A DNA stretch of 64,000 bases from Pirellulales bacterium (GTDB lineage Bacteria; Planctomycetota; Planctomycetia; Pirellulales; JAICIG01): the NCBI GenBank assembly GCA_040901675.1, contig JBBDYJ010000013.1, positions 1 through 64,000 on the forward strand, given 5' to 3'. Within the stretch, counting starts at the first letter, position 1. Every line of letters starts with the position of its first letter. Of this stretch, positions 8,847-10,464 are shown one piece after another. The notes under the pieces were generated by a model. It was not told the origin of the DNA and ran no database searches. It saw only the letters and a list, made by a program, of their open reading frames with translations. The position numbers and the translations under genes were made by a program.

Positions 8847-9737
8847 CTACTCGGGCAGCACGACGGCCTCGGCCATGCGGCGGGTGCAGAGCCCGCGATA
8901 AATTCGATCGTCGATGTACTGCGTGATCATCCGCACCGAGCCGTCGCCCACCAGGAAATTGGTTCCGGTCGGGTGGTAGCTGCCAAAGTCGTCGAAGTGG
9001 CCGGTCGGATGGTTGGGCGTATGGTCGGCGATGCCCAGAAACCGCGAAAAGGCCTCCTCGCCGCCGGGCACGCAGCCGGTCCAGGTCGAGCCGCCCAGGC
9101 GGCTGGACCGCTCGCCCACGAACAGCGTGTGGCTCAAACCGTCGGGCACGTCGCCGAAGGGCACGCCGACGTGGTGGAAGAAGACGCCGTCGCCCTGGCA
9201 CCATTCGCCCAGGGGCACCGATTCGCAGTCCTCCAGCTCGGTCGTGCCGAAGACGCCGATATAGTTGCCCGCGGCCAGGTCGGTGAGGGCCGTCCCCGGG
9301 TTCGCCTCCGAGTCGAGCGTAAACTGCCGCGGACCATCGTCCGACGGACAGCGGTAGCTCTGCAGCGGGCGGAGGCGGGCCACGTCGTTCATCGGGTCGG
9401 TGATCGGACGGTTGAAGTCGATCAAGCCCTTCGAGACGTTCTTCTGCTCCAAGAACGGCAGGATCCGGGCTGCCCAGCCCCAGCCGGGCTCCCCCTCGAC
9501 CCACGGCTGGCCCGTGGCTGGGTCCTCGGCCAGCCAGCCGGGCGGAAGCGACTTGGACGTGTCGTGATACATCTGCAGCGCCAACCCGATCTGCTTCAAG
9601 TGGTTGGTACACGAGCTGCGCCGGGCCGACTCGCGTGCCGCCTGCACGGCCGGCAGCAACAGCGCCATCAAGACGCCGATCACCGCAATCACCACCAACA
9701 ATTCCACCAGCGTAAATGCCCTGCGCCTGCGACGCAT
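8847..9737 (-). CDS. DUF1559 protein with prepilin-type N-terminal cleavage/methylation motif
   Basis: [54 protein letters not shown]-terminal [16 protein letters not shown] (H-X9-DG); SD CAGGAGG before ATG 9737. Confidence 0.95.
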
Positions 9738-9852
9738 GTCACTAGCCTCCTGAGAAATACCGGACTGCCCGATAGGACAACCCGATTGGAAATGTCTGAG
9801 AACCCGAACCGCCGGCCGTTCATCGAAGCGGCCTTGGCGGCAACGCGCGGCT

Positions 9853-10284
9853 TCAGACGCTGGCAGGAGGCGCCCGCGGACGAGCGGATGAGAAAATGTC
9901 GCGCGCCGGGCGGGCGGGCGGATCGGGAATCGCAAGCTCGGCCACCGACAGCGATGGCCCGCCGGCCGGTTCGAACACGACCGGCAACGCGCACTGCGCG
10001 AGGAAGCGGCACACGACGCAGCCCGGCTCGCCGGCGGGCAGAGAGCTTGCCGGATGCCGCGAGCCCGAATGCTGCTCATGGTGCGAAACTTCCCGCACGC
10101 GGCAACCGTGCTCGGCGTGGCACCCCGGATCGTCATGGTGATGATGGTCCGCTTCGACCTCGACATGGCAGCAATCGCCGCCAAGGCCGCGGGGGTGCGC
10201 GTGCCAGCCGCCCGCCAGCGAGCCGGCCAACGTACAGGCAAGCGCCACGACTCCGATCGCGCGATGACGCACCAGGGTCAACAT
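9853..10284 (-). CDS. DUF2946-like His-rich leader with CxxC and C-terminal RAPP (putative arrest peptide)
   Basis: Signal-like N-terminus, HHHH/His-Cys-rich middle, CVVC, ends RPRAPPASV. Confidence 0.75.
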
Positions 10285-10290
10285 GGCCGC

Positions 10291-10330
10291 AGTGTACGCG
10301 AATGAGCGACCTAATGCAACTGAGTTGCAC
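10291..10330 (-). promoter_or_regulatory. Sigma70 promoter TTGCAT-17-TACACT overlapped by TGCAAC-N3-GTTGCA palindrome (Fur/Zur-like box)
   Basis: -10 at 10291-10296, -35 at 10314-10319, palindrome 10315-10329; ATG starts 7 nt after the -10. Confidence 0.65.
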
Positions 10331-10431: not shown

Positions 10432-10464
10432 GAAGGGAGCAAGGAAGCCCATCCTACAGAGGCC

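Follow-up and report, generated by a model that had tools for sequence, protein, structure and literature searches.

A CruR/CutF-like candidate arrest peptide and a candidate Zur-type operator precede a DUF1559 prepilin-like gene in a Pirellulales bacterium

The element described here lies on the minus strand between positions 8847 and 10330 of a 64,000-nucleotide (nt) stretch of Pirellulales bacterium DNA (contig JBBDYJ010000013.1, positions 1 to 64,000; hereafter, the window), and consists of a palindrome, a leader open reading frame (ORF), and a gene for a DUF1559 prepilin-like protein. The closest described systems are two exported leader peptides with Cys motifs and proline-rich ends. CruR of Bordetella pertussis, a DUF2946 protein of about 145 amino acids (aa), has an export signal, a CxxC motif, and an RAPP motif three residues before its stop codon; it is the first gene of its unit, is followed by a long gap, senses copper, and controls a TonB-dependent transporter by Rho-dependent termination (PMC9426467, PMC12992588). 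The CruR CxxC-to-Arg spacing of 45 residues varies by no more than one or two residues and is needed for function (PMC9426467), and at arrest the P and A sites are occupied by the two Pro codons (PMC12992588). CutF of Rhodobacter capsulatus, which is DUF2946-like, carries CxxxC and PPP; it stalls when copper bound, and the stalling melts a stem-loop that separates the two genes and covers the next Shine-Dalgarno (SD) sequence (bioRxiv 2022.11.11.516240, 2025.02.05.636593). SecM, MifM, and ApdA/ApdP likewise arrest at RAPP-like motifs and regulate the following gene by exposing its SD, but they control Sec or YidC components, respond to export force, and have no fixed CxxC.

The locus in the window is real and conserved, probably works like CruR and CutF, and lies outside DUF2946 by score. 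It differs from CruR in its DUF1559 prepilin target, its His-rich core, its stall codons (which are also the anti-SD strand), and its upstream candidate Zur-type box. It differs from CutF in combining CxxC with RAPP, in its predicted opposite polarity, and in relying on the stall codons to close a long-range helix. On balance we favor a two-layer switch, in which repression by a Zur-like protein would be combined with a default stall in the leader that frees the SD of the next gene and is released by metal; the target would be a pilin-like protein made under zinc limitation. The leader class, SD unmasking, and the link between RAPP upstream ORFs (uORFs) and DUF1559 genes are already published. 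What is new here is a palindrome over the predicted −35 hexamer that recurs, as judged from sequence, before zinc-limitation genes and before DUF1559 orthologues with or without a leader. This candidate operator was missed by an earlier interpretation made from the bare letters of the window (the sequence-only reading), and it points to zinc rather than copper.

The leader ORF (10284-9853) encodes 143 aa from its ATG, including 14 His and 8 Cys. A hydrophobic signal-like stretch (best 12-residue hydropathy, 2.4) and the HxH motif that follows it (H28 and H30) occupy 10266-10195. CVVC, at residues 89 to 92 (10020-10009), lies 44 residues before the Arg of the candidate arrest motif RAPP (CGG GCG CCT CCT, 9876-9865), and three more residues precede the stop codon, the same near-terminal position as in CruR. 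The DUF1559 gene starts at 9737, after a gap of 115 nt. The sequence-only reading had described this arrangement correctly. An alternative in-frame ATG at 10452 would extend the leader to 199 aa; the MLTLV start of the 143-aa form is common to two database homologues. The leader has no match in Pfam or NCBIfam. The hidden Markov model search against DUF2946 (PF11162; cut-off, 23.7 bits) that the sequence-only reading had called for gave no match at E ≤ 1 for the leader, and none in the search of the genome. In the window's genome, 240 stop-to-stop frames have R[AG]PP at their end; 11 of them contain CxxC by a loose pattern, and of these only the present leader precedes a prepilin gene.

The stall codons are also the candidate masking strand. 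The 8-mer GCCUCCUG (9871-9864) runs from the last Ala base through both Pro codons to the base that opens the following codon, and it is perfectly complementary to CAGGAGGC (9752-9745), the SD of the DUF1559 gene. This complement had been noticed before, and the fold of 9900-9730 pairs both strands; the pair probability is 0.96 to 1.0 in three fold windows. The predicted anti-SD/SD helix closes a multiloop over two hairpins. The first (9858-9794, from the minimum free energy fold of 9900-9730) includes the leader stop codon and brings the two strands together; the second (9786-9759) has 12 pairs and occurs in all five folds. The 8-mer is unique in 10330-9746, and at its genome frequency 5e-4 copies are expected per 20-position stall window. 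The duplex of the stall codons with the ribosome-binding site (RBS) has a computed energy of −17.1 kcal/mol, versus −11.2 kcal/mol for synonymous recodings. CruR arrests while both Pro codons occupy the P and A sites, so a ribosome stalled here would hold precisely the masking strand. That a stall would free the SD, as the sequence-only reading proposed, is in line with the drop in computed RBS opening energy from 13.6 to 9.0 kcal/mol when the ribosome footprint is blocked; against it, the SD is still paired with a probability of 0.70 in that state.

For comparison, 80 of 131 confirmed loci of the target's subfamily were taken up, from named contigs all labeled Planctomycetota. The comparison set of 110 loci was reduced by 5 without the prepilin motif in frame and by 3 duplicates to 102, of which 94 had at least 900 nt of upstream sequence. 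A CxxC...R[AG]PP ORF lies within 900 nt upstream in 48 of these 94 evaluable orthologues (51 of 102 overall), so the survey that the sequence-only reading had called for gave a positive answer. The CxxC-to-Arg spacing is CruR-like: with 38 to 50 residues allowed, it is 43 in 41 leaders, 44 in 8, and 45 in 2 (n = 51). Mean column identity is 21%. H28 and H30 are at least 90% conserved in 49 leaders, and CxxC is invariant in the same 49, although selection of the leaders required it. The alignments thus indicate a leader conserved by anatomy, not by sequence. Matches to DUF2946 at E ≤ 0.1 were found for 19 of 49 leaders (best, 5.5e-6), and one box-linked relative passes the DUF2946 cut-off at 28.7 bits; since the leader in the window has no score of its own, it is at most a divergent DUF2946 relative.

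Direct homology search with the leader returned two close relatives and, among representatives, three sequences, one of which was a repeat artefact. The family could be reached only via the target gene. A profile built from the 49 leaders matches 74 of 151 genomes of the class. From 122 listed profile matches we took a second set of 70 leaders (the 30 best loci and 40 further ones), 7 of which overlap the first set. With 30 to 60 residues allowed, the CxxC-to-Arg spacing is 42 to 46 in all 70. One further locus has two leader-like ORFs in tandem.

If the unit worked as CruR does, by Rho-dependent termination in the gap, the SD pairing would be a by-product of C-rich Pro codons facing G-rich SDs. 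Gaps of up to 300 to 480 nt in many loci fit that explanation. The pairing of a 27-nt stall window with its own RBS was compared with two controls, synonymous recoding and partner swaps. In the 51 first-set loci the mean duplex energy was −10.4 kcal/mol, versus −8.5 ± 0.33 when recoded and −9.1 ± 0.3 when swapped. For 22 clusters the values were −11.5 and, recoded, −9.6 ± 0.4, with 16 of the 22 better than recoded (Wilcoxon P = 0.003); swaps within GC bins gave −9.8 ± 0.46, and 0 of 5,000 were as good as the observed value. The 45 new loci gave −9.8 versus −8.6 ± 0.33 when recoded. The loss of pairing energy under both recoding and swapping, across clusters and GC bins too, argues against a by-product. 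So do the rare U-ending Ala and Gly codons, which are enriched at the second motif position in both sets (GCT, 18/37 and 11/28; GGT, 15/35), and the perfect match in the window. Termination by Rho as the sole mechanism is therefore quite unlikely, in our view, but Rho termination and SD masking may coexist in the family.

The stall window was the best of 8 windows in 16 of 50 and 9 of 45 loci, with about 6 expected in each set. By full-context folds, 27 of 51 loci have the SD core paired with the footprint (P > 0.5), versus 2 of 51 for recoded means; in these 27 the folds clearly predict the feature known from CutF and SecM, a structure that hides the next SD and that a stalled ribosome would disrupt. 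With the footprint blocked, the RBS opening energy fell by over 1.4 kcal in 30 of 51 loci and rose in 2. Two results weigh on the other side. About half of the loci pair weakly or not at all, as termination by Rho would have it, and the preference for CCT at the first Pro (19/51 in the first set) was not replicated (13/63, P = 0.15). The pairing to which the sequence-only reading had drawn attention thus exceeds both controls but is clear in 27 of 51 loci only. From these computations, the stall-codon/SD pairing appears to be more than an accident of Pro codons, and SD masking appears to be a family tendency that is very clear at this locus and is not universal.

The association of such leaders with DUF1559 genes was already on record, which reduces the novelty claimed by the sequence-only reading. 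In the Fig. 4B source data of PMC12992588 (row 21 of 30), RAPP uORFs before DUF1559 genes number 112, versus 68 AAPP uORFs, a 6.5-fold enrichment with an adjusted P of 1e-31. The arrangement is the same as in the window, and the listed RAPP-uORF/DUF1559 rows include His-rich CxxC leaders, two of them labeled DUF2946. Unlike the present analysis, that source assigns no subfamily, pairing, operator, or metal in the passages covered, and DUF1559 occurs 0 times in the main text. The term was not found in the supplementary text of the CruR and CutF reports, as far as that text was available; the CutF neighbor table or RegPrecise may already hold the association or the box. In the part of the literature covered, no planctomycete Zur box, zinc-linked RAPP leader, or DUF1559 function was found.

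The next gene after the 70 second-set leaders encodes a DUF1559 protein in 51 cases, a DUF58 protein in 4, a class III signal protein in 2, and a protein with no Pfam match in 10; COG0523, ABC ATPase, and ECF sigma genes occur once each. No copper-homeostasis target is among them. Four of the loci have the leader before a DUF58-like family, two of these with a box upstream, and the targets of three more leaders join that family by a common N-terminal motif. In two loci the target is a small pilin-like gene with a class III signal peptide, and the box of one of these is strong (29.0). The COG0523 metallochaperone gene lies directly after its leader.

These targets could be taken to mean that the leader monitors export in the way of SecM or ApdA: translocation of the signal-like N terminus would release the stall and couple pilin synthesis to secretion, and the His and Cys residues would be incidental. 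By hydropathy window, the N terminus is hydrophobic in every leader whose start could be called (weakly so in one), prepilins or class III signal proteins make up 53 of the 70 targets, and known RAPP peptides monitor Sec. However, the fixed CxxC-to-Arg distance in 70 of 70 leaders, the HxH motif, the box, and the COG0523 target argue for metal sensing; in addition, the targets are cargo rather than Sec parts, and the signal of CruR is dispensable. We consider a pure export monitor improbable.

The palindrome TGCAAC-N3-GTTGCA (10329-10315) lies over the −35 hexamer of a candidate promoter (10319-10291) read from the sequence: TTGCAT (10319-10314), 17 nt, TACACT (10296-10291), and 6 nt to the leader ATG. 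The promoter has 8 of 12 consensus letters and falls below the promoter-scan threshold. Its position implies a leaderless or nearly leaderless mRNA, with the leader, as in CruR, as the first gene of the unit. At two other loci, a −10-like hexamer 4 nt before the leader ATG likewise hints at leaderless transcripts. The palindrome is the only perfect copy in the genome (0.14 expected), reaches 19.3 on a matrix for which other loci served as the training set, and has 16 of the 17 letters of the predicted Desulfovibrio Zur site (PMC545781).

Orthologues without a leader have a related palindrome, TGCAAT-N3-ATTGCA, immediately upstream of the gene; 32 of 51 match it with no more than two mismatches. 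Of the 94 evaluable orthologues, 44 have only the leader, 30 only the box, 4 (this locus included) both, and 16 neither. By a quick tree the box-only loci fall in at least three places. A box scoring at least 15 precedes 18 of the 70 second-set leaders, which are outside the training set. One locus combines a strong box, 806 nt upstream, with a short RAPP ORF that has no CxxC, possibly a decaying or frameshifted leader.

The useful box consensus was that of the orthologues, not the window palindrome. Used itself as the search pattern with at most one mismatch, the window palindrome gave 6 sites in the genome and no regulon. Searching 5 genomes with a 13-letter pattern yielded 28 sites, versus 7 for controls, and most of the 16 inspected were inside genes; this pattern was uninformative. 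The strict 17-letter pattern gave 32 sites in 21 of 121 genomes, versus 1 for the control. Eight of the 32 adjoin a ZnuA, COG0523/ZigA, QueD, ZepA-family, or Fur-family gene. Another count, for DUF1559 genes of several subfamilies, was also 8 of 32, 5 of these via an RAPP or RGPP leader, and 3 of these 5 box-leader-DUF1559 sites then have PEP-CTERM-type genes. Other strict sites lie before other PEP-CTERM genes (2), MerC (1), and an ABC ATPase-permease pair (2). The ZepA-family neighbor matches the model "Zur-repressed PEP-CTERM" with an E of 3.5e-78 and 262 bits (cut-off, 75); the ZigA neighbor reaches 596 bits, its cut-off being 600. No copper genes were seen beside the 32 sites. In the two families with the ATPase and permease pair, the box-preceded pair is divergent from a PEP carboxykinase gene. 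In four loci the order is either box, leader, DUF1559 gene of another subfamily, and two PEP-CTERM-type genes, or box, PEP-CTERM, and DUF1559; these arrangements are possible multi-part metal capture operons.

When we started from genes instead of sites, a box scoring at least 19 preceded 5 of 12 COG0523 genes (12 of 13 were scored; 2 of the 5 were already known, and the new ones are 3 of 10), 0 of 29 feoB genes, and 0 of 166 background windows. No box scoring at least 15 was found before 30 P-type ATPase genes. In the window's genome, a weaker site (15.3) lies 46 nt before a ZIP transporter gene. The palindrome thus looks like a planctomycete Zur box by its sequence and its gene company. It resembles described Zur regulons (PMC545781, PMC10957091) in lying over the −35 hexamer, in being nearly the Desulfovibrio site, and in its association with ZnuA, COG0523, QueD, ZIP, PEP-CTERM exoproteins including ZepA, and a nearby Fur-family gene; unlike in those regulons as described in the passages covered, the candidate members include DUF1559 pilins and RAPP leaders. 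Regulon membership proper calls for zinc-dependent binding and repression (PMC6103462). Since the box also precedes zinc-limitation genes, the unit in the window is probably a zinc-starvation gene with two layers of control.

Several results weigh against a simple Zur assignment. No box scoring at least 19 precedes any of the 29 top ZnuA-family genes, which may be manganese-type paralogues. Eleven of the 32 strict sites have no interpretable neighbor, and 44 of the 48 leader-bearing orthologues of the first set have no box. Kin are not independent, and the 30 box-only loci are the training set of the matrix. The site in the window ranks only fifth among 22 matrix matches in its genome, most of which are likely due to chance. 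The box-linked Fur-family protein has an orthologue on one contig of that genome (44% identity, E 2e-42), but no NCBIfam Zur model claims the protein, no box precedes its gene there, and the genome has no COG0523 gene.

A Fur-family regulator for manganese, cobalt, or nickel could be proposed instead, in which case the unit would answer a different shortage. Most ZnuA-family genes without a box and a regulator that cannot be assigned are what such a reading has in its favor. The Mur box of alphaproteobacteria, TGCAA-N5-TTGCA, is similar to the palindrome. The ZigA, all3515/ZepA, QueD, ZIP, and HisI neighbors, however, are markers of zinc limitation, and feoB genes show a different palindrome, so another metal is highly improbable. 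At the best-scoring windows of eight planctomycete feoB loci (no systematic count was made), that palindrome is approximately ATTGAGA-N5-TCTCAAT, a candidate iron (Fur) box.

We propose that the two layers would act as follows. When zinc is plentiful, a Fur-family, Zur-like repressor would occupy the palindrome over the −35 hexamer; shortage would lift repression. The second layer is modeled on CruR and CutF. As a ribosome makes the leader, the signal-like end and the His/Cys region would emerge from the tunnel, and the ribosome would stall with Pro-Pro in the P and A sites. It would then cover the anti-SD, the SD of the DUF1559 gene would open, and the pilin-like protein would be made. At 43 to 44 residues from the active site, the CxxC would lie just outside the ribosomal tunnel. 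Metal bound to the His-rich region and the CxxC could there induce folding that pulls the chain, upon which the ribosome would finish, the anti-SD/SD helix would form, and the gene would shut. The product, at the surface or in the periplasm, would be a pilin-type protein that carries the conserved Asp/His cluster and most likely binds zinc or helps to capture it.

The second layer could also run the other way. With CutF polarity, metal bound to the exported leader would induce the stall. The unit would then be an AND gate for low cytoplasmic zinc and metal outside, or the leader would sense copper or another metal and the box zinc. CutF stalls on copper binding and thereby unmasks the downstream SD; copper is sensed via Cys motifs in both CruR and CutF, the CxxC...RAPP leaders studied so far being copper sensors; and His-only relatives of the leader are tied to nickel or cobalt genes. 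These facts count against release by zinc, and polarity cannot be read from sequence. On the other hand, the motif here is RAPP or RGPP, the spacing is CruR-like, and stalling is the default state of CruR in vitro. No copper genes were seen among the box sites or leader targets, and the same gene is preceded in some loci by the leader and in others by the box, an exchange that suits two ways of being "on when metal is low." We regard the reversed polarity as unlikely, though it deserves the most attention among the rivals, and we retain the default stall released by metal.

The DUF1559 gene (9737-8847) encodes a 296-aa prepilin-like protein (PF07596, E 6.5e-53; N_methyl, E 2.3e-8) with N_methyl, SBP_bac_10, and H-X9-DG regions. 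DUF1559, with 41 or more genes per planctomycete genome, is one of the largest uncharacterized families of the phylum (PMC8567305). A profile of the C-terminal half detects the subfamily of this gene in 78 of 301 genomes of the order, with few exceptions as a single copy among tens to hundreds of first-look candidates, and in the window's genome no other of the 17 prepilin DUF1559 genes has a box or leader. The metal role that the sequence-only reading gave to this protein fared unevenly. Its proposed ligand set, EDC...WC, is variable (C171 in 40 of 102 orthologues). A role in metal shortage gains independent support from the upstream box, and a conserved, subfamily-specific motif, D238-H239-x-P-N...H247-x-D249-D250 (9026-8988), is a candidate metal site. 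Among 102 orthologues D238 is conserved in 94, H239 in 94, H247 in 97, D250 in 94, and P241 and N242 in all; both halves occur together in 0 of 35 other DUF1559 proteins, in a sample whose search patterns favored the motif. The predicted structure (predicted local distance difference test score, 95.3) has a long N-terminal helix (10-61). Most top matches in structure comparison are pilins, and the likeness to type IV pilins is weak (Z at most 4.8; root mean square deviation, 3.4 over 116 residues). Foldseek gave nothing at E ≤ 0.001, and the structure searches named no metal-binding relative. No conserved downstream partner gene was seen in the orthologue loci.

Two independent signals tie this DUF1559 subfamily to zinc shortage, which would give the family its first testable physiological role. 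If the proposal is right, metal-sensing arrest peptides would extend from copper to zinc, the phylum would have a candidate Zur box and regulon, and the design would be a compact one in which the codons that stop the ribosome are the strand that hides the next RBS. With leader and operator trading places ahead of one gene, the subfamily also offers a natural experiment in regulatory substitution. More tentatively, this may be the first zinc-sensing arrest peptide, acting in series with a Zur box or replacing it, and building a zinc-capturing surface apparatus from DUF1559 subunits and PEP-CTERM proteins; each of the dozens to hundreds of DUF1559 paralogues might then be an exchangeable, condition-specific pilus subunit, and this subfamily the one for zinc scavenging. 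We offer this wider picture as a possibility, and a doubtful one.

One metatranscriptome has a 448-nt contig identical to 9772-10219. We do not count it as expression, because contigs give neither strand nor level and an origin from DNA is possible. Directly upstream of the unit, a minus-strand ORF (16761-10465) encodes a very hydrophobic protein of 2,098 aa with no Pfam match above cut-off. Downstream, also on the minus strand (8628-7350), Gp49-like (E 1.3e-14) and HTH_3 (E 1.1e-9) genes and a gene with a weak SecB match (E 0.021) lie in a row; this looks like a toxin-antitoxin-chaperone module that is unrelated to the leader unit.

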